This document shows, one piece after another, positions 10,487-64,000 of a stretch of 64,000 nt of DNA (its first letter is position 1; the number at the start of each line of letters is the position of its first letter). A model generated the notes under the pieces. It was not told where the DNA came from. It did no database searches and saw only the letters and a list, made by a program, of their open reading frames with translations. Origin of the DNA: an uncultured Chloroflexia bacterium (GTDB lineage: Bacteria > Chloroflexota > UBA6077 > JACCZL01); NCBI GenBank assembly GCA_963765765.1, contig CAVXYC010000027.1, positions 32,001 to 96,000 on the forward strand. The letters are read 5' to 3'. A program made the translations under genes and the position numbers.

Positions 10487-11491
10487 TCACTGGATCAGCT
10501 CGGTCGCCTCGGCCAGGATCGACTGAGGGATCGTCAGACCCAGCACCTGGGCGGTCGTGAGGTTGATCACCAGATCAAATTTCTCCGGCCGCTCCACCGG
10601 TAGCTCCGCTGGATTGGCGCCCTTCAGAATCTTGTCCACATAGATCGCAGCGCGTCGCTCCTGGGCGGGGCGATTTGCCCCGTAGGCGATCAGTCCGCCG
10701 GCCGCCACAAATTGAGGAGTTGACATCATCGGCAACCGATGCGCACGCGCCAGTCCGCCGACACGCGCCACGTTGCTATTCAGCACGAGATTGTCCAGCA
10801 GGGTGAGCGCATCCACTCGCTCCTGCACCGCACGCTCGAACGCGCCCTCGATGTCGGCGGGCTCACGCACCTCCAGCGGCACCAGCGTCAGCCCCAGGCG
10901 GCCAGCCGCGGTTTCCGCTATCTGCAGCTCGCCGGCCTGGTTGTCAGGGTGCCAGATAACACCCACGCGTGACACCGACGGAAGTGTCGTTCGCAGGACT
11001 TCCAACCGCTTCCCAATCAGCTCGCGGGCGATGCTGGTCTGTCCGGTGACGTTTCCTCCTGGCCGCGCAAGACTGGCCACAAAACCGTCCTCCATCGGCA
11101 TGCCGGTCTGTGCCATCACGATGGGGATGGTGCTGGTGGCACGCATCGACTCCCGGATAGGGCCGGCCCCGGAGGCCACCAGCACGTCGACGGGCATGCC
11201 CACGAGCGCGGCGGCCAGCTCGGGGAGGCGATCGACCTGCCCATCGGCGGGTCGCCGCCACTCCACGGTGATCGTGCTGCCCTCGACGTAACCCAGCTCT
11301 GCCAGGCCCTCCCGAAAGGCGTCGGCCCATTCCTGTCCGCCAGCCCACAGGTAGCCGATACGAGGTGTCCGAACCGCCTGCTGCGACCGTGGCGATAACA
11401 GCCCGCAGCCGGCCAGCAGACCCAGGCCGGCCGCCGACAGGCCACCCCCGAGGAAGCGGCGACGCGTCCTGGAGTGTCCGAGTCGCGTCAT
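10487..11491 (-). CDS. ABC substrate-binding lipoprotein, COG2984/ABC_sub_bind family (intact copy)
   Basis: RRRFL Tat motif plus LAGC lipobox; SLARPGGNVTG, YVDKILKGANPAELPVE, LVINLTTA. Confidence 0.92.
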   Translation of the reverse strand: MTRLGHSRTRRRFLGGGLSAAGLGLLAGCGLLSPRSQQAVRTPRIGYLWAGGQEWADAFREGLAELGYVEGSTITVEWRRPADGQVDRLPELAAALVGMPVDVLVASGAGPIRESMRATSTIPIVMAQTGMPMEDGFVASLARPGGNVTGQTSIARELIGKRLEVLRTTLPSVSRVGVIWHPDNQAGELQIAETAAGRLGLTLVPLEVREPADIEGAFERAVQERVDALTLLDNLVLNSNVARVGGLARAHRLPMMSTPQFVAAGGLIAYGANRPAQERRAAIYVDKILKGANPAELPVERPEKFDLVINLTTAQVLGLTIPQSILAEATELIQ

Positions 11492-11786
11492 TTGGCGCTA
11501 GTGTACGCCCGCGGGACTAACGGCGCTATGGATTGGTCTTCTGCGAAGAAGGCACCAGCAACGCCGATGGCCGATTGCACACTGCTGATGGAAGGCAGCG
11601 TATGCAGAAGCTACTGGGCAAATCGCAGAGTTGACAGCCAGACCGACCGCTGCCACACTGGCACGCAACGTCGACTGACGGCGCATCTGCCAGGAGCACG
11701 ATGCCAGGGTTGACTCAGCCATTCGTCCGTAAACATCAACCGCTGCGCGCGAAGCCCCATGGATGCTTCAAGAAAGGATCGTCGAA

Positions 11787-13098: not shown

Positions 13099-13290
13099 TC
13101 AAGCCGATGACGGACGCAAGCGCGCCGCACAGCGCCGGGCCCGATAGACTGTCCGCAGGTAGCCGATAGAAGGTGTCCGAACCGCCTGCTGCGACCGTGG
13201 CGATACCAGCCCGCAGCCGGCCAGCAAGCCAGCCGCCGCCAGACTGCCTCGCAGGAAATCGCGCCTGCGTACGTCGCGGAGCTCAGTCAT
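13099..13290 (-). pseudogene. COG2984 binding-protein N-terminal remnant
   Basis: RRRDFLRG...LAGCGLVSPRSQQAVRTPSIGYL nearly identical to the N-terminus of the 10487-11491 copy; homology then stops. Confidence 0.75.
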
Positions 13291-13971: not shown

Positions 13972-13999
13972 TGTTCCGATAACGCCCACTATCGGAAGG
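13972..13999 (+). repeat. dif/Xer-like recombination site candidate A
   Basis: TGTTCCGATAA-CGCCCA-CTATCGGAAGG, 11-6-11 inverted arms. Confidence 0.6.
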
Positions 14000-14160
14000 G
14001 GCACAAACAAGGGAGACGTGAGGAACTTCCCGACGTAGTCCAAGAGCGAGCAGCATCGCGAGGATGATCGGGATGCCGGAGAACTCAAAGAACTTAGGGT
14101 GCTGACGAGTTCCGATACGTTCCGGCAATCATGGGGGCGTCCGGCGCGTTCCGCGCCTAT

Positions 14161-15151
14161 CTACTGGATGACCTCGGTCGCCTGGGCCAGGACCGACTGC
14201 GGGATGGTCAGCCCAAGCCCCTGTGCGGTCTTGAGGTTGATCACGAAGTCGAACGTCGTGGGCTGCTCGACGGGCATATCGGCCGGGTTGGCGCCCTTGA
14301 GGATCCTGTCCACGTAGGCAGCGGCGCGTCGGTAGATCTCGGCGAAGTTCGGCCCGTAGGTCGCGAGCCCGCCCACATCGGTGAACTCGCGATGTTCGTA
14401 GAGCGCGGGCAGCCGATGCTGCGCCGCCAGTTCGACGACCCGAGTAGGGTAACTGAGGGCGGGGCTGCCCGATGGCACCAGCAGCGCGTCGGCGCCCCAG
14501 TCGACCGCCGCCGCGAAGGCGCCGGCGAAATCGTCGGCCGTCCGCGCCGGCAGCAGCCGCACCTGCTGCCCCAGGACCTGGGCCGCCGCCTCGAAGTTCG
14601 CCAGCCGCGGCCCTGTCGCTGGAGTGTCGGGGTTGGCCAGGATGGCGACGCGGGAGGCCGTGGGGACCACCCCCTTCAGCCGCTCCATCCGCTTCATGTC
14701 GGTGCTATCGCCGAGGGTGCTCAAACCGGTGACGTTCCCGCCCGGCCGCGCGAGACTGGCGACCAGGCCGCTCCCGACCGGGTCGGGGACCGCGACGGCA
14801 ACCATGGGGATGGTGCTGGTGGCCTGCTTGGCGGCAAGGCTCGATTGGCCGCCTATCGTCACGAGGACATCGGGCCGCAGGTCGACCAGCTCGCTCGCCA
14901 GCCCGGGAAGACGCTCGTTCTGGCCCTCGGAGAAGCGGTACTCGATGTGGATGTTCTGCCCTGGCTCGTAGCCGTGCTCGCGCAGCCCACGGAGGAAGTC
15001 CTCGCGGATGACGGCGGCCAGGAAGCCGATTCGCGGCATCCTGGCCGTCCCCGTGACTCGGCGCCGACACGACCCCGCAGCCGGCGAGCAGGCCGAGGCC
15101 GGTGAGGCCGAGGCCAGCGCGCAGGAAGTCGCGACGACTCCACGGGTCCAT
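14161..15151 (-). CDS. COG2984 ABC substrate-binding lipoprotein, frameshift near 15060
   Basis: Signal peptide MDPWSRRDFLRAG...LAGC in one frame; mature domain (MPRIGFL...SLARPGGNVTG...QATEVIQ) in another. Confidence 0.82.
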
Positions 15152-15158
15152 GGCAGCC

Positions 15159-15187
15159 AGTATAGACCTGGCCCGCTTAGCCGACAA
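15159..15187 (-). promoter_or_regulatory. Leaderless-type sigma70 promoter
   Basis: TTGTCG-17 bp-TATACT, 7 nt before ATG 15151; a near-identical copy lies at 16411-16439. Confidence 0.65.
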
Positions 15188-15291
15188 TCGAACCATTCAC
15201 CCACCGCGGTCGGCGATCGGCCAGACAACGGAGCCAATCCAGAGAAGGATCTCTCACGCCCCTCCCGGCGCACGCTCCGCGTTTTGAAAGA

Positions 15292-15320
15292 GGGTCCGAT
15301 AACCCCCCATTATCGGCCCG
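15292..15320 (+). repeat. dif/Xer-like recombination site candidate B
   Basis: GGGTCCGATAA-CCCCCCA-TTATCGGCCCG (7-nt spacer, possibly a homopolymer indel). Confidence 0.6.
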
Positions 15321-15376
15321 TCCCTGCCTAGGGTCTCAGCGCAAAGAGGGGAGATTGATCCGAGCGAGCTCACTCG

Positions 15377-16403
15377 CTACTGGATCAGCTCGGTGGCCCG
15401 GAGCAGGACCGACTGGGGGACGGTGATCCCGAGCTCTCGGGCCATCCTGGAGATTCACCACGACCGGAAGCGTGGTCGGCAGCTCGATCGGCAGGTCGCC
15501 CGGTCTAGCGCCTTTGAGGATCCGGTCGACGTAATAGGCCGCCCGCCGGGCGAGCCCGGGCGAGTCAATGCCGTGTGCCAGCAGGCCGCCGTTGGCGGCG
15601 AAGAGCCGATTCTCCGCCACAGCCGGCAGCCCGGACTTCAACACCGCGCCGCCGATGCGGGGATCGGTCCCCCCACCGATGACGCCGCCCGGACAGCACG
15701 ACAGAGACCGCTCCGCCCCCCCGCCCTGGCCGTCGACGAGCACCGCCGAGAAGCTGGTCGAGGTGGGGCATCTCATACCAGCGCGAGCTGGAAGCCCCAG
15801 AGGATTGGGCGGCGCGCTCCACCTCTCGAGTTGCCCCTGCTGGGCGGTCGGGTTCCCGGCCCGATCCTCGCACTGCCGCCAGGCGGGAGATGCGTGGGCA
15901 CGGTCTCATGGAGCAGCTCGACCCACTTGCCGAGCGTTTCACCGGCGTTCGTCGCCACGCCGGTGATGTTGCCCTCGGGGCGGGCCATGTTTTTCACCGA
16001 GCCCGTTTCCTACGACGTTCGTACCGGCGGTCACGATCGGAATGGTCGAGGTCGCCCGGCTGGCGGCGACGGACCGCGGGGCTGCCCGCTGACGACGATG
16101 ACCTCGACCGGCAGAGCCGACCAGCTCGGCCGCCAGGGCCGGAAGGCGCTCGAAGTCCAGTTCGGCGTCGCGGCGCTCGATCAGGACGTGCTGGCCCTCG
16201 ACGTAGCCGAGGTCCGCGGAGCCCCTCGTGGAACGCATCGAAGTAGACCTCTGGGGGTTAGCGCCGGAGGTCCAGGTAACCGATGCGGCGCGGGCGCCGG
16301 CGCCCGGCCCTGCGATGGGAGCACCCCGCAGCCGGCGCAGCAGGCCGAGGCTGGTCAGGCCCAGGCTGGCACGCAGGAAGTCTCGACGATTCCACGGGTC
16401 CAT
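15377..16403 (-). pseudogene. COG2984 ABC substrate-binding protein, multiple frameshifts
   Basis: Fragments in several frames: MDPWNRRDFLRAS, LGYVEGQHV, NMARPEGNITG, YYVDRILKGARPGDLPIE. Confidence 0.8.
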
Positions 16404-16700
16404 GACAGCCAGTATAGACCTGGCGGCCTTAGCCCACAATCGAACCATTCACCATATCCCCAGCCGCCGATGCATGCCCCTCGAGCAGCGGGCTGAGGAC
16501 CTCTACCGGTGCGACCCCACCGTATTTGCAGGGCGCTTCCGGGTCGACCGGACCGCCGCGTCGTTCGACGCCTTCGTGTACCTGGCCGTGATCGTCATCT
16601 GCATCCGGAGAGCCATGCGTGCCCAAGCATCGGGCATCGAGGATGATTGTTTACCGCCAAGGCCTAGCGCGCACGGTCAGGCCCCGGATAGTTTGAAACA

Positions 16701-16728
16701 GGGTCCGATAACCCCCATTGTCAGAACC
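16701..16728 (+). repeat. dif/Xer-like recombination site candidate C
   Basis: GGGTCCGATAA-CCCCCA-TTGTCAGAACC; preceded by tttgaaa, as site B is. Confidence 0.6.
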
Positions 16729-16924
16729 AGAGGGCCGCGAGCCTGACTACAGAGAGTCACAGTGTTTTGGTTCCAGATAGCCGCCGCGCCTTACACCCGC
16801 CAAAGGAAGGAATCCTGGAGACGGCACGTATATTGGCGAAGTGCACGCGCTGTGGTCGGTCAAACGCGCGCGAGCCCGGGAACCTCTAGCGCCGTCAGCT
16901 TCACGGGCGTACACTAGCGCCATC

Positions 16925-17949
16925 ATGACGCCACTCGGACCATCGAGCACCCGTCGCCGCTTCCTGAGGGGTGGCCTGTCCATGGCCGGCCTCGGTCTGC
17001 TGGCCGGCTGCGGGCTGCTCCCTCCCCAGGCCCCAACGTCCGAGCGGGTGCGCCTGATCGGGGTCCTCGGCGACGCGCCTGGCGGGCGTTGGGACGCGTT
17101 CTTGGATGGACTGCGGGAGCTGGGCTGGGTCGAGGGCCGGAACCTCGCCGTGGAGTCCCGCTGGGCCGAGGGAGACTCCCAACGGTACCGGGCGCTCGCG
17201 ACCGAGCTCGTCGAGCGGAAGGTCGAGCTGATTGTAGTGGGGACGTCGGAGGCCAGCCTCGCCGCCAAGCAGGCGACCGCCACCGTCCCGCTCGTGGCGA
17301 TCCTGGTCAGCGGGGAGGCAATCGAGATCGGGCTCGTCGACAACATCGCGCGGCCCGGCGGGAACATCACTGGGACGGCCGGCATAAGCGGGCCGCAACT
17401 GGTAGGCAAGCAGCTTCAACTCTTGAAGGAAGCGGTCCCGCACGCCTCCCGTGTAGCCGTGCTCCGCCCAGGCAGCGCAGAGGACCTTCGGCTTCGGATG
17501 CGCGCGCGTGCGGGCGCTCCAGGAGGCCGCGCCCGGCCTCGGGGTACACCTTCACGTGGTCGCCATGCCGAACATCAGCGGCCTCGACGACGCGTTCGCG
17601 GCCATGTCCACAGCCGGCGCTGATGCCGTCAAGATTCTCCGCAACCCAGTTCGACTCTGCGTGGGGACGCATCGCCGAGTTAGCGCTCCAGTATCGGCTG
17701 CCGTCGATCGCGGAATATCCGGAGTTCGCTCGGGCGGGAGGCTTGCTGTCCTATGGCTCGAGTCGAGCCGAGGTCTACCGGAGTGCAGCACCGTACGTGG
17801 ACAAAATCCTGCGAGGCGCCCGCCCTGGCGACCTGCCGATGGAGCGGCCCACGGACTTCGACTTCGTGATCAATCTCGGAACAGCGCAGGCCCTGGGGCT
17901 GACCATCCCGCAGTCCATCCTGCCGCAGGCCACCGAAGTCATCCAGTAG
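16925..17949 (+). pseudogene. COG2984 ABC substrate-binding protein, frameshifted
   Basis: TRRRFL/LAGC signal, NIARPGGNITG; C-terminus YVDKILRGARPGDLPME...QATEVIQ in another frame; shifts near 17500 and 17650. Confidence 0.8.
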
Positions 17950-17989
17950 CAGACCGGCGAGCACCCCGGCCGATGGTTCCTTCGAAGCA

Positions 17990-18016
17990 AGTTCCGGTAA
18001 CCGCATCATCCGCCCT
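17990..18016 (+). repeat. Degenerate dif/Xer-like site candidate D
   Basis: AGTTCCGGTAA-CCGCA-TCATCCGCCCT, lying between two binding-protein paralogs. Confidence 0.4.
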
Positions 18017-18164
18017 AGTACACGGATGACGGGTGAGGTCGCTCGGAGCGAAGTCCTACGTAGCGCCCGATCGGCCTGCGCGCTATGCTGGGTATTCGTC
18101 GCGGGCTGTGCAGCCGGTGAGCCCGCCCAAGCTCTGAACGGGAGGACCTGTGCTGCAGGCCAAC

Positions 18165-19180
18165 ATGATGCGCCAGCGGTTTGCACCGACTCGTCGCGCC
18201 TTCCTGCGGGGCGGCCTGGCTGTGGCGGGCCTGGGCCTGCTCTCGGGGTGCGCGGCGGCATCGCCGATCGGCCCGCAGCGTCAGGCGCGGCTACCCCGTA
18301 TCGGCTACCTGTGGAGCGGCGAACAGGAATGGGCCGACGGCTTTCGGGAGGGCCTGGCGGACCTGGGCTACGTTGAGGGCAGGACTATCATCGTCGAGTG
18401 GCGACCCGCCGATGGGCAGGTCGAACGCTCCCCGGGCTGGCCGCCGAGCTGGTGGGCCTGCCCGTCGACGTGCTCGTGGCCTCCGGGGCCAGCCCATCCG
18501 GGCCGCGATGCGCGCCACCAGCACCATCCCGATCGTGATGGCATGAGACGAACGACCCGGTGGACGGAGGGCTTTGTGGCCAGCCTGGCACGGCCGGGAG
18601 GCAACGTCACCGGGCAGACCAGCATCTCCCGCGAGCTGATCTGGGAAGCGGTTGGAAGTTCTGCGAACGGCACTCCCGTCCGTGTCGCGGGTAGGCGTGA
18701 TCTGGAACCCTGATCTCGCCGACCAGGCCGGCGAGGTGCTGGAGGTGGAGGCCGCGGCCGGCCCCCTGGGGCTGGAGCTGTGCCGCTGGAGGTGCGTGAT
18801 TCCGCCGACCTCGAGGGCGCGTTCGAGCGAGCGGTGCATGAGCGGGTGGATGCGCTGTCCCTGGTGGACAATCTCGTGCTGGCGAGCAATGTGGCGCGGG
18901 TCGGCGGGCTGGCGCTCACGCACCGGTTGCCGATGAGCTCGGCCGCTCCGCGATATGGTGGCGGCCGGCGGACTGATCGCCTACGGCGCAAATCGCCCCG
19001 CCCTGTAGCGCCGCGCGGCCAGCTACGTGGACAGGATTCTGAAGGGCGCCAATCCCGCGGAGATGCCAGTGGAGCGGCCGGACGAAATTTGACCTGGTGA
19101 TCAACCTCGGAACGCGCAGGCGCTGGGCTCTGACGATTCCGCCGTCGGTCCTGGCCCAGGCAACCGAGATCATCCAGTAG
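18165..19180 (+). pseudogene. COG2984 ABC substrate-binding protein, multiple frameshifts; close paralog of 10487-11491
   Basis: PRIGYLWSGEQEWADGFREGLADLGYVEG, EGAFERAVHERVDAL; ends QATEIIQ followed by stop. Confidence 0.8.
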
Positions 19181-19245
19181 GTACTTGGCCCCATCAGCGC
19201 CCAAGCGCCCAGTACGGGGTGGGAGCGAGCTATCCGGACATCACT

Positions 19246-19272
19246 CGTTCCGATAATCCCCATTGCGGAACG
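19246..19272 (+). repeat. dif/Xer-like recombination site candidate E
   Basis: CGTTCCGATAA-TCCCCA-TTGCGGAACG (right arm one base short). Confidence 0.55.
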
Positions 19273-20176: not shown

Positions 20177-21265
20177 TCAGGCAGCAGCGCCCACCGGGGT
20201 CAGTTGGTAGAACCGCTCCGCGTTCCCCGCCAGGATCTTCCCTTTCGCTTCCTCGCCCATCTCCTCGTTCTCCAGCAGCTCCTCGATCTCGTGCCGACAC
20301 ATCTGCGCCGTCACTTCGTGCGGGAAGTCCGTGCTGAACAGGAACGCTTCCGCTCCCACCACCCGCGTCGCTTCCGCGATCGCCGGCTCTTCCCCTTCGC
20401 ACCCCACGTACAGCCGCCCTTCGGCGATCTGCCGCTTCATGTACGCGCTCACTCGCTCGCCCTCGCGCAGACGGAAGTGCTCATTGCGCGGGTCGTGCGC
20501 CAGGTGCGTCTCCCAGCTCCGATCGAACCGCTCCAGGCACACCAGGAACCACGCGACGCCACCTTCCAGGTACGCGTAGCGGGCATTCGGAAAGTGGTCG
20601 AAGATCCCGTTGAACAGCATCGCTCCCAGTCCCACCATCTGGCCGAACGGGTGCCCCAGCCCGTGGACCGGCCCGTACACGTTGAAGTGGTCCATCCCGA
20701 AGCCGCTGTGCGCGCCGCCGTGCACCGCCAGCGCGCAGCCCAGCCGATCGGCCACCTCGTACACCGGCCAGTACTCCTTGGCCCCCAGGTGGTTGGGCAG
20801 CCCGGTGCTCGGTAACATGGCTCCCCGCATGCCCAGCTCGGTCACCGCCCGCTCCAGCTCCTCCGCCGCCGCTCGCGGCTCCTGCATCGGAATCAGCGCC
20901 ATGCCGCCAAATCGAGGATCCACCTTCAGATAGGCATCATGGAGCCAGTCGTTGTATGCGCGGCAGGCCACAGCCGCCCACTCATAATCCACCATCTTGC
21001 CGTGCGCCAGGCCGCGCGTCGGATAGAGCACGGTGCTCTCGATGTTGATCTCGGTCAGGAACTCGAGCCACTCGGCAGCGCGGATGAACTTGCCGTTGCC
21101 CGAGGCGCCCGGCAGCATGACGAGCTGCTGGCTATGGAGGTGGTCGAGCGGCGGAAAGTGCCGGTCGGCGTTGTAGTTCCAACGATCCTTCCAGATGTCC
21201 GGAACGAACTTGGAGATCGCCTGCATGTCCTCCATGATGTGGCCATCTGCATCGATGATGCGCAT
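20177..21265 (-). CDS. Amidohydrolase_2 family protein, copy 2
   Basis: IDADGH, FSTDFPH; GGAGG RBS. Confidence 0.92.
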   Translation of the reverse strand: MRIIDADGHIMEDMQAISKFVPDIWKDRWNYNADRHFPPLDHLHSQQLVMLPGASGNGKFIRAAEWLEFLTEINIESTVLYPTRGLAHGKMVDYEWAAVACRAYNDWLHDAYLKVDPRFGGMALIPMQEPRAAAEELERAVTELGMRGAMLPSTGLPNHLGAKEYWPVYEVADRLGCALAVHGGAHSGFGMDHFNVYGPVHGLGHPFGQMVGLGAMLFNGIFDHFPNARYAYLEGGVAWFLVCLERFDRSWETHLAHDPRNEHFRLREGERVSAYMKRQIAEGRLYVGCEGEEPAIAEATRVVGAEAFLFSTDFPHEVTAQMCRHEIEELLENEEMGEEAKGKILAGNAERFYQLTPVGAAA

Positions 21266-37029: not shown

Positions 37030-37392
37030 TTAGCAACCGTGGAAAGGATAGACACCCAGAGCCGGGTTCTCAACGGCGATACCGCTCTTTACGGCGTGGT
37101 GATAGAACCGCCGCAGCACCAGCAGCTTGTGTGACACAACGCGCGGATCCAGGCCTTCGGTCGCCAGCAGGCGACGATAGTGGCGGATGTCTACGACCGT
37201 CGCTTCGGACACGCGGATCTGGCGCTCGTGGCACCAGAGCAGCCACGCGGTGATGTGCGATCGATAACCGGGCATCGCCACAGGCGAAGAGCCATCGTCG
37301 GCCAGGTGGTCGCGCAGGAACGCTAAAAACGCCTGCTCTCGATCATCGGCGGTGGTCGTCTGGGACGCACGTCCGGGGTGCGACGCATCCAT
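37030..37392 (-). CDS. Stand-alone phage-integrase/XerD N-terminal SAM-like (core-binding) domain protein
   Basis: FLAFLRDHL...Y...WLLWC...DIRHYRRLL...VSHKLLVLRRFY...ENPA, then stop; no catalytic domain follows. Confidence 0.7.
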   Translation of the reverse strand: MDASHPGRASQTTTADDREQAFLAFLRDHLADDGSSPVAMPGYRSHITAWLLWCHERQIRVSEATVVDIRHYRRLLATEGLDPRVVSHKLLVLRRFYHHAVKSGIAVENPALGVYPFHGC

Positions 37393-46621: not shown

Positions 46622-46651
46622 GAGACCGGAATGACGTAAGTCCCAAGAGGA

Positions 46652-46786
46652 GACCCTACCCCAGCCCTCCCCGTGCGCGGGGAGGGGGCCTGGTTTGAGG
46701 ATTCCTGGATGCGGCTCGCAATCGGATTTCCAGATTTCACAGAATCCGGCCCCCTCCCCGCGTACGGGGAGGGCTGGGGTAGGGTC
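46652..46786. repeat. REPIN-like element (same family as 34863)
   Basis: gaccctaccccagccctccccgtgcgcggggaggggg ... ccccctccccgcgtacggggagggctggggtagggtc. Confidence 0.82.
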
Positions 46787-46855
46787 GGCTCTCCAGGATC
46801 TCCTCAACTTGGCCGAAGAATTGCATTAACGGCGACCACTTTCTGACGGGAGCGA

Positions 46856-51752: not shown

Positions 51753-52019
51753 TTACCGTCGCGCTAACGTATAGAGCTCCGTGAGCTCACGGATCATGTC
51801 TTCGGAGCGCCCGGCCTCGAACCCCTCCGGGACACATCCCTGGAGATGCCCCTCGACCAGTACTGCCTCGAGCTTGTGGATGGCCTTCTCGACCGCATAC
51901 GTTTGCTTCAAGACGTCCACGCAATACTGATCTTCCTCGATCATCTTGCGGATACCGCGCAAATGCCCCTCGATGGAGGCCACGCGGTTCAATACATCTT
52001 TCTTTTGTGCTACTGCCAT
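51753..52019 (-). CDS. csoR: CsoR/RcnR-family metal-sensing repressor
   Basis: RVASIEGHLRGIRKMIEEDQYC...HLQGC (Cys-His-Cys). Confidence 0.9.
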   Translation of the reverse strand: MAVAQKKDVLNRVASIEGHLRGIRKMIEEDQYCVDVLKQTYAVEKAIHKLEAVLVEGHLQGCVPEGFEAGRSEDMIRELTELYTLARR

Positions 52020-52029
52020 TGCTAATCCC

Positions 52030-52050
52030 ATCCCCCCTGGGAGGGGGTCA
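52030..52050. promoter_or_regulatory. Putative CsoR operator
   Basis: atcccccctgggagggggtca, a C-tract/G-tract pseudo-palindrome immediately upstream of csoR, resembling known CsoR operators. Confidence 0.55.
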
Positions 52051-52339: not shown

Positions 52340-52367
52340 AGTTCCGATAACCCCCATTATCGGAAAC
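52340..52367 (+). repeat. dif/Xer-like recombination site candidate F (closest to consensus)
   Basis: AGTTCCGATAA-CCCCCA-TTATCGGAAAC. Confidence 0.65.
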
Positions 52368-52748
52368 AAGCAAGCGCGCAGCAGCGGCACGGACCCGCAA
52401 TCGTGGCTATGGGCGAAACCCTATTAATGGCTCGACCGGGCTACATCGAACGCTCGCTCTACGCGCTGGCCATCAGGGAATGCTTCAACTATTGTGAAGT
52501 CTCCCCTGAGCGCCTCGAGACAGTATTTTCCCGCGTCGATCTCTTTCCGTGAGCGCACGCCGAAGCGACGTAGGAGCGGCAGGGCCGGCACCAGCCCTGG
52601 ACTGCGTGCTAACAGTAAAGGACGAGGACTCAGGGAACAATCACCTAGTGCCGCTAGCCCGCGACGAGGGTCAGCATCGAGTGCGTCGCGCCATGGCGGC
52701 CAGCTAACTCACGGATATCGAATCTTTAAGAGACAGGCATCGAAGGCT

Positions 52749-52778
52749 TGTTCCGATAACCCCCCTGTTATGCGAACC
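52749..52778 (+). repeat. dif/Xer-like recombination site candidate G
   Basis: TGTTCCGATAA-CCCCCCTG-TTATGCGAACC; the right arm reads GGTTCGCATAA on the minus strand, one mismatch from the E. coli XerC arm GGTGCGCATAA. Confidence 0.55.
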
Positions 52779-52942
52779 GCGGGGAACGCGGAACGGCGAA
52801 ACGTTGATCGAGCGCGTGCATCGAAGTAGGTGTAGATCGCGAACGTACCAAACCATACAACCCCGATCATCACGATCCCGATGAGAAAGGCGACATTCGC
52901 CTTACGCTTGAGCGCACGTTTCAACAGGTCATAGCTGCTCCT

Positions 52943-53974
52943 TCATGGCGATCGGTGCCGAAGGTCGGGTGCGCTCGCCGGATTTCGGCCCTTGAAGACC
53001 ACGAACAAGAGCCAGAGCGATGGCAGCAACAGCCCCATGCCCGGCACAAGCGTCCAGAGCACGAAGCGGAGCGTGGGCGCCGGTGCCGCCGAGTCGATCA
53101 CGGTCACATCGGGATAGATAATGTATGGCCATTGGGCCAGCGCCCAGCCCACCACCAACAGGATCACCTGGCCGACCGCCAGTGCTCGTGCCGTCGCGAA
53201 CCGATGCCTCCACATGGCCAAGGCGGACAGCGGCGCCAGCAGGATGCCACCGGCCACCACGGGTGCCGCCCGCAGGCTGGTCAGCCCTGTCCAGAGCCGT
53301 GGAGCTTCGACATAGGTTAGCAGCAGCGTCCCTATTGAGATGAGGCCTGCCGCCAGCCATGCGCCGAGCGCTCGGCGGCGGAAGTCCCCGCGCAGCTCGC
53401 CCTCGGTCTCCAGGGTCAGATAGACGGCGGCCAGATAGGCGCAGAGCGCGAGGGCCAGGGCACCGATCGCCAGTGCGAGCGGGTCGAGCCAGGCCCATGC
53501 CGCTTCCGGCGCCACCCGCCCGCTCTCGACTCGGATCCGCCCGTTCGAGACGGCGCCCAGGCAGACCCCGAGGAGGAACGGCGTGATAACGCTCGCGCCG
53601 CCGAAGACGTGCCCCCAGCTCAGGCGCGCGCCGATCGCCGCGTGTCCGTGCGCGCGGAACACGAACGCCGCCCCTCGCAGCACGACCCCCAGCAGGACCA
53701 GGTGGAAGGGGGCGAAGAATGCCACGCTCAGCGCCGCGAAGGCGGCCGGGAAGCAGGTGAAGAGCAGCACGATCAGGAAGATCAACCAGACGTGGTTGGC
53801 CTCCCAGACCGGCCCCATCGCGGTCGCGATGGCCGCGCGCTGCTTCCGGGCGCGTGGCCCACGGGCAAACAGGTCCCAGACTCCCCCGCCGAAGTCGGCG
53901 CCGGCCAGGACCGCATAGGCGACGAGCGTCCCCAGCGCGACGACGCCGACGACTTCGGGGAGGTACTCAGGCAT
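52943..53974 (-). CDS. cydB: Cytochrome bd quinol oxidase subunit II
   Basis: GADFGGG, GPVWEANHVWLI, LRGAAFVFR. Confidence 0.93.
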   Translation of the reverse strand: MPEYLPEVVGVVALGTLVAYAVLAGADFGGGVWDLFARGPRARKQRAAIATAMGPVWEANHVWLIFLIVLLFTCFPAAFAALSVAFFAPFHLVLLGVVLRGAAFVFRAHGHAAIGARLSWGHVFGGASVITPFLLGVCLGAVSNGRIRVESGRVAPEAAWAWLDPLALAIGALALALCAYLAAVYLTLETEGELRGDFRRRALGAWLAAGLISIGTLLLTYVEAPRLWTGLTSLRAAPVVAGGILLAPLSALAMWRHRFATARALAVGQVILLVVGWALAQWPYIIYPDVTVIDSAAPAPTLRFVLWTLVPGMGLLLPSLWLLFVVFKGRNPASAPDLRHRSP

Positions 53975-55331
53975 GGACGGGTGGAGCCTCTGGATCGGCC
54001 GCTGCGTGCTCCATCGGCTCGTCGCCACGCGCCAGGCGACGGAGCAGGATGATGAGGGTGACCGCCAGGCCGGCGTAGAGCAGGCTAAACCCGGCCAGGG
54101 ATATCCCGACCCCGCCGGCGGGCGTGACAGCGTCGGACGTGCGCATGACCCCGTAGATCACCCAGGGTTGGCGACCAACTTCGGTGACGATCCAGCCGGC
54201 CTCCAATGCCAGGAATCCGAGCGGTGCAGAGAGCACCAGCACCCAGAGGAGCCTCCGGCGGGCGGCCCAGTCGAGCCCGCCGCGTCGGCCGCGCCACCAC
54301 GCCCACCAGTACCAGAGCGCCACCCCCATCATCTCGAAGCCAGACCCGACCATTACCTGGAACGCCGGATGCACGATGCGCGACTCCGGCCACTGGTCGC
54401 GTGGGAATGCCTCCAGTCCGAGCACCTCGGCGTTCGGATCGTGGGCGGCCAGGACGCTGAGCAGGTACGGGATCTCGATGGCCCAGGACGTCTCCCGGGT
54501 ATTCGGGTCCGGCCAGCCGAAGATCCGCAACGGCGCGCCGCGCTCGGTCGTGAACTGGCCTTCCAAGGCTGCCAGCTTGGCTGGCTGATGCTCGTGTGCC
54601 CGCTGGGCCAGGAAGTCGCCAACGATCGGCTGGAGCACCGCCGAGATGCCGCCTAAGAGCATGGCGATAACGACGGCGAGGCCGTTGTAGCCGGCACAGT
54701 TCGAGCGTCGGTTCTTGAGCAGCGCCCAGGCGTAGATACCGGCGGCCGCAAACCCGACCGCCTGATACGTTGAGAGCGTCGAGTGCGCGGCCATCAGGGG
54801 CCAGGCCGGGTTGAAGAGCGCAGCCATCGGGTCGATGTTGATCGGCATGCCGTCTGGCCCCAGGTCGAAACCGACCGGCTGCTGCATCCATGAGTTCGCC
54901 GAGAGCACCAGGATGCCGGAGGCTGCTCCGCTGAGCGCAACGGGCCAACCACATAGCCAGTGAGCGAACGGTCTCAGGCGATCCCAGCCGTACAGGTACA
55001 GCCCGAGGAAGATCGCCTCGATGAAGAACGCGTACCCCTCCAGCGCGAAGGCCGGCCCGATGAGCGGCCCGGCGAACTCCATGAAGCGCGGCCAAAGCAG
55101 GCCGAGTTCGAACGAGAGCGCCGTGCCCGAGACGGCGCCGATGGCGAACAGAACGGCGGTGACCTTTGCCCAGGTCTTGGCGAGACGCAGGGCATCCCGA
55201 TCTCCCACCCGCAGCCAGCGGCCCTCGGCGATCAGCATCATCAGCGGCATCGCCATCCCGACCGCCGCGAAGACCATGTGGAACGCGAGCGAGACCTCCA
55301 TCTGGATCCGGGCGGCGGTGAGCTCGCTCAC
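53967..55331 (-). CDS. cydA: Cytochrome bd quinol oxidase subunit I (short Q-loop)
   Basis: LAFH, GAVSGT..SFE, QPAKLAALEG, EAGWIVTEVGRQPW; GTG start at 55331. Confidence 0.94.
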   Translation of the reverse strand: MSELTAARIQMEVSLAFHMVFAAVGMAMPLMMLIAEGRWLRVGDRDALRLAKTWAKVTAVLFAIGAVSGTALSFELGLLWPRFMEFAGPLIGPAFALEGYAFFIEAIFLGLYLYGWDRLRPFAHWLCGWPVALSGAASGILVLSANSWMQQPVGFDLGPDGMPINIDPMAALFNPAWPLMAAHSTLSTYQAVGFAAAGIYAWALLKNRRSNCAGYNGLAVVIAMLLGGISAVLQPIVGDFLAQRAHEHQPAKLAALEGQFTTERGAPLRIFGWPDPNTRETSWAIEIPYLLSVLAAHDPNAEVLGLEAFPRDQWPESRIVHPAFQVMVGSGFEMMGVALWYWWAWWRGRRGGLDWAARRRLLWVLVLSAPLGFLALEAGWIVTEVGRQPWVIYGVMRTSDAVTPAGGVGISLAGFSLLYAGLAVTLIILLRRLARGDEPMEHAAADPEAPPVHA

Positions 55332-55589
55332 GGCGGCGATCCTCCGAAGGGGGCAAGAGAGGCGGGGACCGCGAGCCGCCCGCGCACTCGATGCCACTGA
55401 TTGCCGTGGATATGGTCCCACAACGCTACGCCTGGGCGGGGCTGGAGAATCCCCCCAAGGGGGCGGGAATTCCCCTCTCCCGTTGTGAACGCGACGCCTG
55501 TGGGCGTCACCCATTGCTCACCGGGGCTCACTGCACTGCCTGAGCCTCCGCTCCGGAGATTAGGAGTTGGTTGGCAACCATCATGCCTG

Positions 55590-55760
55590 TGGCCACGTTC
55601 GACCCGTCGAGTGCCAATCTCGTGCCCATCGCCACCTGAACCGGCACGCCCCATGAGGTAGACAAGGATCGGCACCGTCAGGATCGAGCCGCAGGCACCA
55701 AGCGTCCCCGGCAACAGGCCGATCACGACCCCAAGCCTCAGAGCGAGCACGGCGTGACCC
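55590..55760 (-). pseudogene. TauE/SafE (sulfite exporter) N-terminal remnant
   Basis: LGVVIGLL.GTLGA.GSILTVPILVYLMG. Confidence 0.55.
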
Positions 55761-55789
55761 AACTCAGGCACGATCCGCTGATTCCAGTT

Positions 55790-56119
55790 CGGGAGCAAGC
55801 TGAGGGGCCAAGGTCGGGCGCAGCAGGTCGCAGGCGTCTGCGATGGCTGGGGTAGGCCAAGCCGTAGAAGTTTCTGTTCGCTTCGCGGCGGGCGGTCACC
55901 ATACCCACCTCGCGCATAACGGTCGGGTGCTGCGAGACATTCGGTTGGCGGACGCAAGCGCCGCGACCAACGATTAACGGTGCCCTCTCCGTCTCTGAGC
56001 AGGGGGATGATCGCCAGCCGCTTCGGGTCCGCCAGCGCTTGGCACAGCAGAGCCTGGCGCTCGAAGAGCGCCCTCGGCAGGTCGAGCCGCGGGGAAGATG
56101 CGCCGGATTGAATATTCAT
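55790..56119 (-). pseudogene. ArsR/SmtB-family regulator, frameshifted
   Basis: LFERQALLCQALADPKRLAII.LLRDGE.TV, then the frame is lost. Confidence 0.65.
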
Positions 56120-56176
56120 GATACCGACGGCTGTAGTAGCAATGGTTCAACTAACTGTGTCTGCAAGAATAGTATT

Positions 56177-56204
56177 CGTTCCGATAACCCCCATTCTCGG
56201 AACG
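56177..56204 (+). repeat. dif/Xer-like recombination site candidate H
   Basis: CGTTCCGATAA-CCCCCA-TTCTCGGAACG. Confidence 0.65.
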
Positions 56205-56693
56205 ACCAGCTCCGGATGTGAACTCGGAGACTGATTCCTTGGTTCCAGATAATGGCCTATTGACGTGGTTATCGGAACCACATTTTCGTGCGTCGATCAT
56301 TTGCCAAAAGCGGCCGGCGAGAGATTCCCAGTGACGGGCGAGACTGGCTACGCTAATCCGGCTTAGCGCTCACGCTAGCCCAGGCCGTCTCAATACTGGC
56401 CGGGCGGGGTGGTCACTGAGACATTGTTTACTTGACGGGTTGTGAGACCAAGCGTCGAGCTCGGCCGCGGGGGTTCAAGGACAGTCGGAGCTCCGTCCAA
56501 CAAACGGCCGTTTTGTGAGACGTCGGGATCCGCGCCGCGCGGACGACGCCATCCGAGCGCGGTCTTGAGCTCGCGGTGTCCAGACTGGAGAGCGAGATCG
56601 CCCCGAGGGGCCGGCGCTGCACAACGGGATCGATCATCCCTCCCATCCTCCAATTCATTGTATGTAACGGGCGCTCCCCGCTCAGGACATGCG

Positions 56694-57575
56694 TTACTGA
56701 CGAAGCTCTACCCAGCCTTCGCGGATCCGCGCCGTGAAGCTCGGCTGCGGATACACTGACGGACCGTCGAGCAGCTCGCCGGTGCACACATTGAACCTCG
56801 ATCCGTGCCAGGGGCACGTGATCACGTCACCGTCCAGCTCGCCTTCCGACAGTGGGCCCCCCAGGTGAGCACAGCTTTCGGCGATGGCGGTAACCTGATC
56901 GCCTCGTCGGAAGAGCAGGATCCGCGCGCCGTTTACCTCGCCCTTCCGGACCTGCCCATCTGGCAGATCTGCCTCCAGCATGACGCGCTTGAACTCGGGC
57001 GGTAAGCTGGTTCCTTTTGCGTGATCGACGCCGATTCCCTCGCTAAAAACGAGCGCTCCGCCGAGATAGGCGGACACATTTGAGATGGCAAACCCAGTCA
57101 TCGAAAGAACAATGCCGCGGCCTCGATGTCCTGATTTACGCGCCGCCATCGATGCGAGATACGCCATTGTCACCGATCCATTCAGAAGACCATGAACCAG
57201 ACCTATTCGCCGCGATGATCCGGATGTGTATTGCCAGTCGTTCCAGCCGGCGACGATTGCCGCGGCTGCGCCCGCTAGACCAACGGCCACCGTTGAGTCG
57301 CCAACCTTGCTGAAACTGCGCATCGAGCTCAGCTCCAGTAAATCGGCCAGAAACGTGACGCTCCACGCCCCGATTGGAACGTCCGTGAGAATGGGATGCA
57401 ATGGATGGCCGAGCCAGGTACCGTGGAGCACGTTCCTGGCACCGCTGCCAAGCTTCGTCGTGACGTCGCCGACGACTTGCGACACCCGATCGGCGAGACC
57501 ATCGAGCTGCTCCAAACTACCGATCCGCTCGGCGATCGACATCGGCAAGTGTGCCGCGTTTCTGGACATTGCCAT
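56694..57575 (-). CDS. DUF2231-like membrane domain plus Rieske [2Fe-2S] ferredoxin fusion
   Basis: LHGTWLGHPLHPILTDVPIG, YLGGALVF; CAHLGGPL...CPWHGSRF. Confidence 0.88.
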   Translation of the reverse strand: MAMSRNAAHLPMSIAERIGSLEQLDGLADRVSQVVGDVTTKLGSGARNVLHGTWLGHPLHPILTDVPIGAWSVTFLADLLELSSMRSFSKVGDSTVAVGLAGAAAAIVAGWNDWQYTSGSSRRIGLVHGLLNGSVTMAYLASMAARKSGHRGRGIVLSMTGFAISNVSAYLGGALVFSEGIGVDHAKGTSLPPEFKRVMLEADLPDGQVRKGEVNGARILLFRRGDQVTAIAESCAHLGGPLSEGELDGDVITCPWHGSRFNVCTGELLDGPSVYPQPSFTARIREGWVELRQ

Positions 57576-57699
57576 GTTCCCTCCCACGCTGAACCCGACA
57601 GAGCGGCGCAATACGCATGCCAAGCCACCCGAAAGTGTGGGTGGATTGACAGCCCGCCGAGCGCCGGTCGCCTACAATTTCTGCGTTGGGAGTTGAGCC

Positions 57700-60455: not shown

Positions 60456-60849
60456 TCAGGCTCCCAGCCAATCTGCTAAGGAGATAATCAATTCGATTAT
60501 ACCGACCTGTCTTGCACGGCCCTGGGGCGTTCATTAGACTCGACGCTGGGATGATCGTCGGCAGACGATGTGTCGCCCTCAAGGAGAGCGCCATGGCGGA
60601 TGTCCCGATCACCCCCTTCCTTCACAAGCTCCAGGAGATGGACCCAGCATTTTGCGGAGTCGGTGCTCAAGATGGTCCATGGATGAGCTCGCAAAGCCGC
60701 CGCCCGACGACTCCGGTGGGCACCAACGTCAATACAGCGAGGAATGAGGGCCGGAACTGGTCGTGCCAGTCAACTTCGCGTAGAGAATAGCTTCTTTCCG
60801 CGATCGACCTGGCAGGTCCAGAACCGCTCCCAGCAATTGGGGGCTAGCC

Positions 60850-61373
60850 ACACGGAGAGCTTCCTTCCCTGATCTTCACGACGATCCGTGCTGCGCGAGG
60901 CGTCGGTACCAGCACGGCCATGACATCGTCGTGGGTCTCGGCGTGAGCAGCCAGGTCGACGTGGCCATGGAGGTCCTGGAGGAGCGGCGCGGCGTGCTGA
61001 GCGTCGTGAGCCAGCGCGAAGAGCACTTCAGCGAACACGACCAGCGCTTCCTCACCGCCGTGGCCGGCTGGATTGGCCACTTGACCCATCGGAGTGAGCT
61101 GGTCAAGCAATTGGCCGGCGGGATCGCCCAGCAGGCGCGGCGGGAGGCCGGCGACGAGCTGGCCCGAATCACCCGCCGACAGCAGGAAGTAGCTGCGCTG
61201 GTGGCGGAGTGCCTGAGTAACGAGGAGATCGCGGCACGGCTGGTATTGACGCCGGGCACGTGGCCAACCACATGGAAAACATCCTCACGCGGCTCGAACT
61301 GCCGAATCGGACGAGTCTGGGGGTCTGGGCGGTGGAGCGCGGACTGTATCGTTCGGAGTGGGCCAGGGAGTAA
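60850..61373 (+). pseudogene. GAF plus LuxR-HTH regulator, truncated and frameshifted (5' end approximate)
   Basis: RGVLSVVS...FSEHDQRFL GAF end; ITRRQQEVAALVAECLSNEEIAARL, then ANHMENILTRL in a shifted frame. Confidence 0.7.
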
Positions 61374-62193
61374 TTCGGGGCGGCACGACATCTGCAGGGC
61401 CGTCGCCATCCCCGCACGATCGGAGTCCCCATGGAATGGCCGGAGTTGGACGCCCTTGCCGATGAGCTTCGACGGACGCTGGCACGCGGGTCCCTGCGAG
61501 GTTGCCCCGCTCTCGGGGAGGTTGCGAGCCGAACACTGGACGCGGAGCGTGTTGCGCGCATCACGTTGGCCGACATCGATCATGTGCGCGCCTGGGAGCG
61601 GTCTGATGCCTTCCCCCGCTCCGGCCGGGTCGGCGCTGTGAGCTGGGACGGAGCGCGCGCCAGTTGCTCCACGGGGCGTAGCACGGTCCCGACTGTGAGT
61701 GCAGACGACGCCGATGGCCCCGGGCGATGCCATGGCGGAGGCGCTTCAAGGACCGCGTGGACTGCGCCCTGCGTCACGCCGAGCCGTCCGAGGGCGCCAT
61801 GACCTTCCCGTCGGTCGACAATGCGGACGGGTGGTTGTTGGAAGAAGCGGCGCCGAGCGTGGTGCACGTCCGCTGGAACAACGTCTATGGCTCTCGCGGT
61901 CCCGGAGACGACGCGCTGCGGGCGAGGCTGCTGGATCCGGTCGAGCAGTTCCTGCATTTGACGCAGTACGCCGTGACGCGGCATCGCGACGAACGAGGTC
62001 CCTACGTTCGTGTGACGCGATGGCGGTTTGCCGGGTCCGCTTCCGCCGACGGCCGCCTTCGACTCAAGTCCTGCGGATCCGATTCCCGCGCGGCATCGGA
62101 AACGGCATCGGGCGCGAGATACGTATGGAGCTGCACATCATCCCATGCAGCGTTCGGATCACTCTTAGCTGAGCACCAGGAGGGGAGCTTTCA

Positions 62194-62950
62194 ATGCCGC
62201 CAGCTGAAGTTATCGCGCTCACGGACGAGATTCACGCACGGATCGAGCAGGGCGAATTCGCCGGGCTGGGCCCGATCGCTGGTGGAGGGCGGGAAGTTCT
62301 CCCCGACGCGGAGGTGGTCGCCCGGATCCTGCTCGCCGACGTCGAGGATTGGACGGAACGCGAGTCACTGGGATCACGTCAGCCCCCCGCAGTGGAACCA
62401 CCTCACCGCGCAGCTCCGCGCCTTCCTGCGTGAAGTGGAGCACTTTCGCGGCGCGCACGGCGGTGAACTCGAGTCCCGGCCGGTCGAGGCGGCTTCCCGC
62501 TCCATCATCCAGCGGTTCGAGCTGGCGCTCCAGCGATCGCCGATCGTCGTCTACAGTCAGGACACGGAGCTGCGCTACACCTGGGTCTACAACCCGCACC
62601 CGGATTTCGATGCCCGAGAGCATCATCGGCACGACGGACGCGGCGTTCTACCAGCCGGACGAGCTGGAGCGGCTACAGGGCATCAAGCGGCGCGTCATGG
62701 ATACGGGCGTGGGGACCCGGGAAACGATCTCGCGACCCTGCATGGCACGCCCACGTACTATGACCTGACGGTCGAACCGCTGTACGACGCACACGGCGTG
62801 ATCATCGGCGTGACCGGCGCGGCAACGGACATCACGGCCCTCATGCGCACCGAGCAGGCGCTGGCCCGGAGCGAGGCCCAGCTCAACGAGGCGCGGCGGA
62901 TCGCGCAGATCGGCAGCTGGGAGTGGAACGCGGTCACCGAGCAGGTGACC
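62194..62950 (+). pseudogene. Unknown N-terminal domain plus PAS sensor protein, frameshifted and truncated
   Basis: GGAGG RBS; SPIVVYSQDTELRYTWVYNP, YYDLTVEPL...GVTGAATDIT, AQIGSWEW. Confidence 0.7.
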
Positions 62951-63061
62951 ATGCAGGACCTACTGGAGCTGCGGCGGCTGGCTGGCGATCCGCCACCGAG
63001 CGACGTGACCGGGTTTCCTGCTGAAGCGAGCGAGCGGACACCGGAATCAGCCGGAGCCACG

Positions 63062-63634
63062 ATGACAGGAAACGAATCGCGACAGCCCCCGGGGCGCCGA
63101 GCACGAAGCTACGCCCTCCAGCACTTCCATCGGATTTCATCCCGACGACCTCGGGTGCACGAGCGGCTGACGGAAGGCTGGGGGCGCCCCCTGATGCTCG
63201 TCTGCGCACCGGCCGGATTCGGGAAGACGATCGCTCTCGCCGGCTGGCTCCACGACGCTCGGCGGCCCTGGGTTTGGGTGAGCCTCGACGAGCTCGACAG
63301 TGACCTCGTCAGCTTTACCGGCGTGCTCGTCTCGGCGCTCGGCACTGTCATTCCGGATGCCGGACGCCAGGCGCTCGACCTTGTCGCGCAGACCGAGAGC
63401 CCTGCGCTCAGCCAGCTCAGCGCCCTCCTGGCCAGCGATCTCGCGGCGGTCGGCCATGAGCTGGTCATCGTGCTCGACGACTTCCACCTGATTCAAGAGG
63501 GGGCGATTCATGCGCTGCTATCGCTCCTCGTGCGCCGCCTGCCGCCCACGATCCAGCTGGTGATCGCCAGCCGCGAGGAGCCGCTGCTGCCGGTGGCCCT
63601 GACGCCAAAGCCCAGCCGGTTCACGAAGGGGTAA
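63062..63634 (+). pseudogene. MalT-like STAND regulator N-terminal NTPase fragment
   Basis: RPRVHERL, APAGFGKT, WVSLDELD, VLDDFHLI, LVIASREEP; stops long before full length. Confidence 0.78.
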
Positions 63635-64000
63635 AGATGGCAGAGTTGCGATTGGGATCCGATCGTGCGCTGCAACGTTTTCGTGCCGCTCTCGCGGCCG
63701 CTGAAGCGGCACCGACCGAAGCGTCCGTCGCTGCGCTCCACGAGGCAGCGCTTCTGCTGAAGAACGAGCTTCGCGCTGCGTACATGGCTGCCGGGCAGTC
63801 CGTACGGCAATGACCGTGCGGGCATGTACCGCTGGATCCGAGAGGTCATGGCGCGACGGGGCCTGGGACCTGATGAGATGCAGAGCGATGGCTCCATGGC
63901 GAACTAGGGCTTATAGCTCGGAAGGTGCCGTGCCGGCCGGTAGCCACGTCGTCACTCATAAACGATTGCCGTCTAAATGAAGAAGCGACAAGAAACTCGT

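Follow-up and report, generated by a model that had tools for sequence, protein, structure and literature searches.

In the dif modules of Acinetobacter (pdif or xrs modules), one to a few accessory genes are bounded by short Xer-type sites. Two accounts (PMC12907356, 10.1101/2022.12.17.520857) describe multi-module arrays, modules that carry no recombinase, and modules in chromosomal islands too. The flanking sites are inversely repeated XerC/XerD sites, according to the second account (10.1101/2022.12.17.520857). Here, we describe a 64,000-nucleotide stretch of DNA from an uncultured Chloroflexia bacterium (GenBank contig CAVXYC010000027.1; hereafter, the window) that shares the modular layout. 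Eight copies of a palindromic site, named A to H, lie in two clusters, and sites G and H of the second cluster enclose cydA and cydB, the genes of a cytochrome bd oxidase. In contrast to the Acinetobacter modules, the sites in the window are all direct repeats, their consensus is symmetric, and the host belongs to the Chloroflexota. Membership in the XerCD dif/pdif group was rejected, as both arms of the window sites follow one consensus and all eight sites share one orientation. The XerD arm of dif is of the TTATGT type; only the right arm of G comes nearer to the XerC-type arm. The pdif pattern had no match near plasmid cydAB in the two Acinetobacter loci examined.

A second counterpart is the dif/XerL system of the Legionellales, with its integrative mobile element exploiting Xer recombination (IMEX), LME-1. 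PMC9765430 and PMC5071653 describe perfect-dyad arms around a 6-bp spacer, as in the window, and one recombinase that serves the site. LME-1, once inserted, has an intact direct copy on one side and a substituted one on the other (PMC9765430, PMC5071653); the window sites similarly have near-perfect left arms and decayed right arms. XerL homologues also occur among the recombinases beside the window-type motif. However, the Legionellales dif is described there as a single terminus site (PMC9765430, PMC5071653), whereas the window holds eight copies with small cargo devoid of mobility functions. Identity of the two sites was rejected because only 7 of 11 arm positions, compared by eye, agree with the att given in PMC5071653. 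The motif was absent beside XerL-like genes in the five plasmid loci fetched. Two of these loci (L126:2329-2356 and L127:2258-2285) carry a different 11-6-11 palindrome directly upstream of the XerL-like recombinase; thus, arm sequence varies within the XerL-like clade.

In Tn4430 (irs/TnpI) and Tn4651 (rst/TnpS-TnpT), the site likewise lies directly upstream of the recombinase (PMC7157771), as it does at 16 GTDB loci described below. In three of these 16 cases, a divergent KfrA_N gene adjoins the other side of the site. Identity with Tn4651 rst was rejected: 50 kb of pWW0 contained no copy of the motif (best match, 7 mismatches in 20 positions), nor did the stretch that we take to be the tnpT-tnpS interval (rst). 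Neither a Tn3 transposase, nor an intact resolvase, nor divergent tnpS/tnpT genes were seen in the window.

Integrons and clusters of attC sites lacking integron integrases (CALINs) are also arrays of one- or few-gene units between repeated recombination sites, a likeness that the window shares. The attC site of integrons is a 50- to 140-nt hairpin, and its cassettes are co-oriented. The window sites differ in conserving a spacer rather than a folded single strand. An integron or CALIN was rejected on three grounds: conservation spans only about 28 bp, the genes between sites A and E lie on both strands, and a six-frame profile search of the window found no IntI, only an N-terminal recombinase fragment. 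Recombinase classes and integron integrases are treated in PMC8138268. Taken together, the arrangement in the window resembles dif modules and IMEXs in its working and falls outside both by sequence tests. Tyrosine-recombinase-type sites that bound accessory modules are already known; the respiratory oxidase is the particular cargo here, and this cydAB differs from other cytochrome bd oxidases in lying between symmetric recombinase-type sites. No description of the site family was found in the literature searched, which did not extend to figures, most subscription papers, or bioRxiv supplements, so a printed logo could have escaped the search.

The palindromic sites of the window

The second cluster comprises three sites on the plus strand (coordinates assume 11-bp arms). 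Site F (52340-52367) is a near-perfect 11-6-11 palindrome with the spacer CCCCCA and the top score in the window (profile score of 38.6). Site G (52749-52778) has a perfect left arm, an 8-nt spacer, and an off-consensus right arm, and it lies within the reading frame of a small open reading frame (ORF). Site H (56177-56204) has a perfect left arm, the spacer CCCCCA, and a right arm with one mismatch. A decayed fourth palindrome follows on the same strand (56240-56280), with a perfect right arm, a left arm longer by one base, and a 16-nt gap; the point at which a preliminary description of this locus ended the cluster (56279) corresponds to it. Sites A to E form the first cluster (13972-19272; starts at 13973, 15293, 16702, 17991, and 19247) and also share the plus orientation. 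Sites F, G, and H have arms, orientation, and C-rich spacers in common with A to E. The preliminary description had placed F, G, and H at 52340, 52749, and 56177 and likened their orientation and spacer to an array at 14 to 19 kb, and our coordinates and alignment agree. Each of the four A-E intervals contains one ABC_sub_bind gene or its remains, two per strand; the remnants in B-C and D-E have no Pfam match and were assigned by DNA similarity to the intact ABC_sub_bind copies.

Alignment of the eight sites yielded the consensus GTTCCGATAA-CCCCCA-TTATCGGAAC, with conservation confined to the ∼28 bp of the site. Left arms are near perfect, while right arms are decayed to varying degrees. The spacers of C, F, and H are identical, those of the remaining sites differ by one base or an indel, and the asymmetric spacer keeps one orientation across 42 kb of the window. 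The spacer lengths of G (8 nt) and B (7 nt), both in runs of C, may be assembly errors, as a number of ordinary window genes are likewise split. When up to two mismatches were allowed, an 18-mer matched six times in the window versus zero times in each of 100 shuffles. A looser two-arm rule retrieved seven distinct sites, compared with none in each of 40 third-order Markov simulations. Rfam and tRNA searches of the window gave no matches, and a terminator scan left F, G, and H uncalled.

Tyrosine recombinases bind the inverted arms of their sites, and the spacers of partner sites must match; direct repeats lead to integration or excision, and inverted repeats lead to inversion. The layout of a simple core site of this type, two inverted arms of 10 to 13 bp with a spacer of 6 to 8 bp, is that found in the window. 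The preliminary description regarded G as poorly suited to be an operator. This assessment holds, and it extends to the neighboring site: F and G both lie downstream of genes, and the spacer is conserved and oriented, where that of an operator would be free. A transcription-factor operator was rejected for these reasons.

Association of the motif with tyrosine recombinases

GTDB genomes were scanned with one exact pattern in which the spacer was left free. The motif was found at no fewer than 118 loci in many phyla, including one archaeal metagenome-assembled genome (MAG); the GTDB counts that follow rest on the matches listed. Spacers vary freely between genomes among these matches. Flanking sequence was evaluated for 77 loci, after L030 and L031 were removed as duplicates of L032. 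An all-versus-all comparison of ORFs near the motif gave one dominant family, the tyrosine recombinases, at 28 loci. At 20 of the 77 flanked loci, a tyrosine-recombinase frame lay within 150 bp of the site, which was upstream of the recombinase in 16 cases and downstream in four. Under random placement, linked loci averaged 2.9 and never exceeded 9 in 2,000 trials; the observed count is thus an approximately sevenfold enrichment. Nineteen of the 20 site-adjacent proteins were analyzed with Pfam, and all 19 matched PF00589 (17 above the cutoff). By our own count from a quick version of the tree, in which one row (L052) was out of frame and disregarded, these recombinases represent about 12 independent lineages. 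They are polyphyletic and include TnpS-like, KfrA_N-paired, and Lachnospiraceae groups, as well as XerL homologues (53% identity) with the motif directly upstream in two loci.

Spacers were compared within and between loci. Adjacent pairs within a locus shared at least five of six spacer bases in 17 of 30 cases, compared with 2.4% of 10,547 between-locus pairs. In inverted pairs from Lachnospiraceae, the spacers remain reverse complements of each other while the spacer itself changes between species (GAAACA, GAAGTA, and GAAATA). Given the recombinase linkage (20/77) and the spacer sharing (17/30), the palindrome is most likely an Xer-like crossover site and not an operator. On the basis of sequence, we consider it highly probable that the sites are recombinase core sites.

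The preliminary description further proposed that the site family is independent of its cargo. The survey bears this out, as the motif elsewhere brackets unrelated genes and adjoins tyrosine-recombinase genes. In Brevibacillus, the cargo of direct-repeat arrays comprises hypothetical genes as well as a Fic gene and an HNH nuclease pair; in two other MAGs, it comprises Rhs-like modules. Two Pseudolabrys loci have a common adenylate-cyclase gene to the left of the site and diverge 21 bp past it (EcsC versus PPK2). With the site as the blastn query, three weak plasmid matches and one phage match were retrieved, none annotated as a recombination site; the match in Rubrobacter is a true copy of the motif.

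Several individual loci deserve mention. Rhs C-terminal/immunity-like modules lie between identical sites with the spacer GGCGCC at L006:99-3125, L069:8527-10026, and L028:10001. Five Lachnospiraceae loci (L003:3645-3870, L015:10001-10182, L062:10000-10181, L093, and L102) have segments of 156 to 200 bp between inverted sites; next to these lie a tyrosine recombinase and either a flagellin gene or csrA. A conserved motif within these segments resembles the sigma-28 promoter consensus, and the inverted segments are likely a flagellin phase switch. At three Chromobacteriaceae-like loci (L018, L035, and L075, each at ∼10001), the site separates a tyrosine recombinase from a divergently oriented KfrA_N gene, and the chromosomal surroundings are conserved; this arrangement is possibly a dedicated resolution module. 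In Bacillota MAGs (L088, L096, and L076), the site occurs in tandem units of ∼95 bp that resemble repetitive extragenic palindromic (REP) elements. One Prevotellaceae MAG (L001, L021, L026, L058, L090, and L115) carries near-identical elements of ∼190 bp, with two sites each and the self-complementary spacer TATATA. A site in another Chloroflexota MAG (L099:301-326, with 300-bp flanks) has the C-rich spacer CCCCTC and is the only Chloroflexota match with a C-rich spacer among those listed. No close relative of the window was recognized among the listed GTDB loci.

The cydAB segment and its surroundings

The preliminary description listed an arsR remnant, a tauE remnant, cydA, cydB, and a small ORF between G and H. 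This content holds with respect to the oxidase, while the two remnants are less secure. All five genes lie on the minus strand. Both cydB (cytochrome bd subunit II; 52943-53974) and cydA (subunit I; 53967-55331) are intact, and their full-length products score above the curated Pfam cutoffs (PF02322 and PF01654, respectively). The best solved relatives of CydA, quinol oxidases of 448 to 462 residues (9R2G and 5DOQ), align with it end to end. The small ORF after cydB (52709-52924) encodes one hydrophobic stretch and passes through G without a stop; it matched no Pfam family, and an Atlas search gave only a lead (score of 0.90 to a cluster of 72-residue hypothetical proteins). The tauE/safE remnant (55649-55786) is short and weakly matched, with Pfam E values of 0.0014 to 0.0023 that lie under the curated cutoff. 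The frameshifted arsR-family remnant (55798-56119) had no Pfam match and was recognized by tblastn to ArsR in two frames (E values of 1.7e-5 and 0.21). To the left of the cluster lies csoR (51753-52031, minus strand), with copA and copZ, and to the right a DUF2231-Rieske gene (56694-57623, minus strand) is followed by two M16 peptidase genes; both flanks have host-like codon use. Close relatives of the M16 peptidase are 75 to 98% identical to it.

The higher GC content of cydAB relative to the flanking cop and M16 genes, noted in the preliminary description, persists at third codon positions. The GC content at synonymous third positions (GC3s) is 0.849 for cydA and 0.850 for cydB, versus 0.681 ± 0.025 in 31 other window genes (after removal of seven suspect genes). 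Conditioned on amino acids, the corresponding z scores are 7.5 and 6.5, whereas copA, csoR, DUF2231, and both M16 genes range from −1.7 to +0.6. Change-point analysis of raw GC placed the best pair at 53030-53140 and 56090-56110, with support ranges of 52890-53360 on the left and 55340-56150 on the right. A shift had been sought at both G and H. The right edge fits H closely, with the shift ending ∼70 bp before the site, while the left edge falls somewhat inside G. From this composition, we regard it as very likely that the G-H segment is foreign.

Six of the 120 CydA matches listed name an organism: five are Chloroflexota (68 to 75% identity), and one belongs to the Thermodesulfobacteriota. 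A tree of the best 70 of these 120 matches contains only six named rows, too few for a test of discontinuity. As the named relatives are mostly Chloroflexota and a relative with 89% identity exists, the donor of the segment was probably a member of the same phylum, judging by these sequence matches. Queried as DNA, the G-H segment aligned with plasmids over 12% of its length at most, and relatives of cydA occur on 820 plasmid records. A mobile cydAB is in itself not new, and taken alone it is ordinary. The two Acinetobacter plasmid loci fetched both have rhodanese and TauE genes at most 8 kb from cydAB.

The F-G interval had been viewed as a possibly empty cassette with no convincing gene. Contrary to this view, it contains a gene remnant (52433-52722, minus strand) that corresponds to the C-terminal portion of a DUF2892-like membrane protein and is both frameshifted and interrupted by stops (tblastn E value of 5e-9; domain E values of 2e-13 and 3e-5 with a hidden Markov model [HMM] built from three sequences). 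The homology fades 30 to 70 bp short of G; the 5' part of the gene was sought past G and not found there, and an Atlas search of F-G returned nothing usable. Relatives of DUF2892 adjoin sulfur-transferase, metallo-beta-lactamase (MBL)-fold, TauE, or Blh genes in two of three plasmid loci fetched. The remnant shares its strand with arsR-tauE-cydAB, and the sulfur-detoxification setting of its relatives fits these genes functionally. Cytochrome bd oxidases are high-affinity, sulfide-tolerant enzymes. The content of F-H is co-oriented and functionally coherent, unlike the ABC_sub_bind cargo of A-E, and the two genes that adjoin G seem to be severed at the site. Given the sulfur-detoxification neighborhoods of the DUF2892 relatives, F-H may constitute a single island, and G may be a junction within it instead of the boundary of a separate cydAB cassette.

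In its full form, this alternative holds that arsR, tauE, cydAB, the small ORF, and DUF2892 constituted a single sulfide-stress neighborhood that arrived as a block or within a larger element, that an internal deletion or a capture event left G as a scar, and that cydAB was never its own cassette. The shared minus strand of all five cargo genes, the truncated appearance of both G-adjoining genes, the neighborhoods of plasmid DUF2892 and cydAB relatives, and the identical 6-bp spacers of F and H, from which that of G differs, speak for it. However, the high-GC block stops short of F-G: GC in 200-bp windows is 0.54 to 0.64 in F-G versus 0.64 to 0.75 in the block, and change-point support ends at 52890. 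The A-E cluster, moreover, has one gene per interval, as separate modules would give. We consider the one-island account unlikely, yet it fares best among the alternatives.

Alternative explanations and proposed mechanism

A second alternative is that the sites represent the dif-type chromosome-dimer-resolution site of the host and its degraded derivatives, which IMEX-style elements integrating repeatedly near the terminus would have left behind; the enzyme would then be the housekeeping Xer protein. The 11-6-11 layout, with one conserved and one variable arm, has been reported for dif (PMC3025954), and a perfectly symmetric dif with a single recombinase exists (PMC9765430). The XerL homologues with the motif directly upstream are also in keeping with this idea, as is a GC skew that turns positive near 60.5 kb. 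However, the switch in skew falls together with a further high-GC stretch, and 33 kb separate the two clusters, which hold eight copies in all. By eye, no more than 7 of 11 arm positions agree with the Legionella att arm; the XerD-type arm is absent, and the site-adjacent recombinases are polyphyletic. We judge a host dif origin to be quite improbable. The weakest alternative, that the sites are nonrecombining dispersed repeats (REP-like hairpins, terminators, or operators) that gather in variable regions, accords with the GTDB copies that form longer palindromes with A/T tails or 95-bp tandem units and with the lack of an adjacent recombinase at most loci, and it is very improbable given the enrichment beside recombinase genes, the covariation of spacers in inverted pairs, an asymmetric spacer held in one orientation over 42 kb (needless for an operator or hairpin), the lack of Rfam matches, and the terminator scan that left F, G, and H uncalled.

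Our preferred account remains that the sites are recombinase core sites and that the cargo entered by crossover at them; we assign this account as a whole a probability of roughly 60%. Several observations weigh against it. Most of the flanked GTDB loci (57/77) have no recombinase within 150 bp, as is the case in the window, and the profile behind this count was built from site-adjacent proteins, such that distant recombinases may be undercounted. A six-frame profile search of the window found no intact recombinase. The sole trace is a truncated tyrosine recombinase 15 kb away (37033-37392, minus strand) that retains only the N-terminal SAM-like domain (Phage_int_SAM_1); this fragment has no adjoining site, and a search for full-length relatives of it found none, a negative that is weak evidence. 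Spacers are unmatched in 13 of the 30 neighboring pairs, and the 17 matching pairs are not independent, as four are TATATA pairs from near-identical copies in one MAG and five come from related Lachnospiraceae. The spacer of G is 8 nt as assembled, and the left change-point range (52890-53360) sits 110 to 580 bp inside G. High GC3 also occurs in genes with no bracketing sites: the amidohydrolases at 4052 and 20177, a solute-binding protein (SBP) gene at 11763, and the ABC_sub_bind gene at 10487. CydA has a relative with 89% identity, and the named relatives of CydA and of the flanking M16 peptidase (all of the latter) belong to the host phylum, Chloroflexota; vertical inheritance of cydAB in part of the lineage is therefore conceivable. 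Finally, an empty-site sister genome did not turn up in the one genome scan, which was directed at the site pattern.

Under the crossover account, the two inverted 10- to 11-bp arms would bind a simple Xer-like tyrosine recombinase, and the 6-bp spacer would be the region of strand exchange. The eight copies have a common orientation and nearly the same spacer. Integration of a single-site circle at a resident copy could therefore produce direct repeats; alternatively, the DNA enclosed by two copies could be excised. The G-H segment (the arsR and tauE remnants, cydA, cydB, and the small ORF) would have come from a donor of higher GC content, probably another member of the Chloroflexota, and entered at such a site; cydAB would then have remained intact while neighboring genes decayed. 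In most sites, one arm is degenerate, which would stabilize pieces once integrated. As a precedent, poor excision has been described for an element integrated between two symmetric sites, of which one is intact and the other substituted (PMC9765430). The enzyme would act in trans or may since have been lost. Two features of G, the truncation of the genes to either side and an odd right arm located within a reading frame, are suggestive of capture via a cryptic half-site in donor DNA, which is speculation on our part. We infer recombinase binding, the integration route, the donor, and stabilization by arm decay, and likewise the movement of a respiratory oxidase by the sites.

A broader reading can be put forward only tentatively, and we consider it somewhat doubtful. 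It envisions gene capture across phyla through one symmetric Xer-like site that is used by several unrelated simple tyrosine recombinases. Compatibility groups within a genome would be set by spacer identity. A module would arise by recombination of a true site with a cryptic half-site in donor DNA, an event that would account for the severed genes at G, and direct-repeat arrays would then accumulate in chromosomes without an attached integrase gene. If true, it would amount to an integron-like store that operates on double-stranded DNA and delivers working respiratory-oxidase, binding-protein, nuclease, and Rhs modules.

Other window features and significance

Further features of the window lie away from the F-H cluster. 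The truncated recombinase at 37 kb is situated between an oppA-like gene and an ATP-binding cassette (ABC) permease gene. Two amidohydrolase genes (4052-5155 and 20177-21265) are 93 to 97% identical over long stretches, have high GC3, and are not bracketed by sites; a third, more distant copy lies at ∼21.3 to 22.3 kb. A fifth ABC_sub_bind gene (10487-11491) and a 5' fragment (13153-13290) that is 95% identical to its start are outside detectable site pairs. At the right end, a second high-GC stretch (60500-64000; GC of 0.65 to 0.68) contains broken pieces of LuxR/GAF, PAS, and AAA-ATPase regulators; the GC skew changes sign at its start, and no site is found at its left edge. A pair of 50-nt inverted repeats (46646-46792; 90% complementary), REP-like in character, lies between Fe-trafficking and Zn-peptidase genes.

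The interest of this locus lies in the site family more than in a mobile cydAB. Should the proposed account be correct, a directly searchable motif of 26 to 28 bp would reveal where accessory modules begin and end in numerous uncultured lineages, and the 16 recombinase genes with a site directly upstream provide testable enzyme-site pairs. Shuffling of the dif-module kind would then reach beyond Acinetobacter and resistance genes to energy metabolism, and the host would have gained its cytochrome bd oxidase as a plug-in. The presence of such sites around a foreign-looking oxidase in a soil-type bacterium suggests a little-noticed cut-and-paste route by which accessory genes are added to chromosomes.

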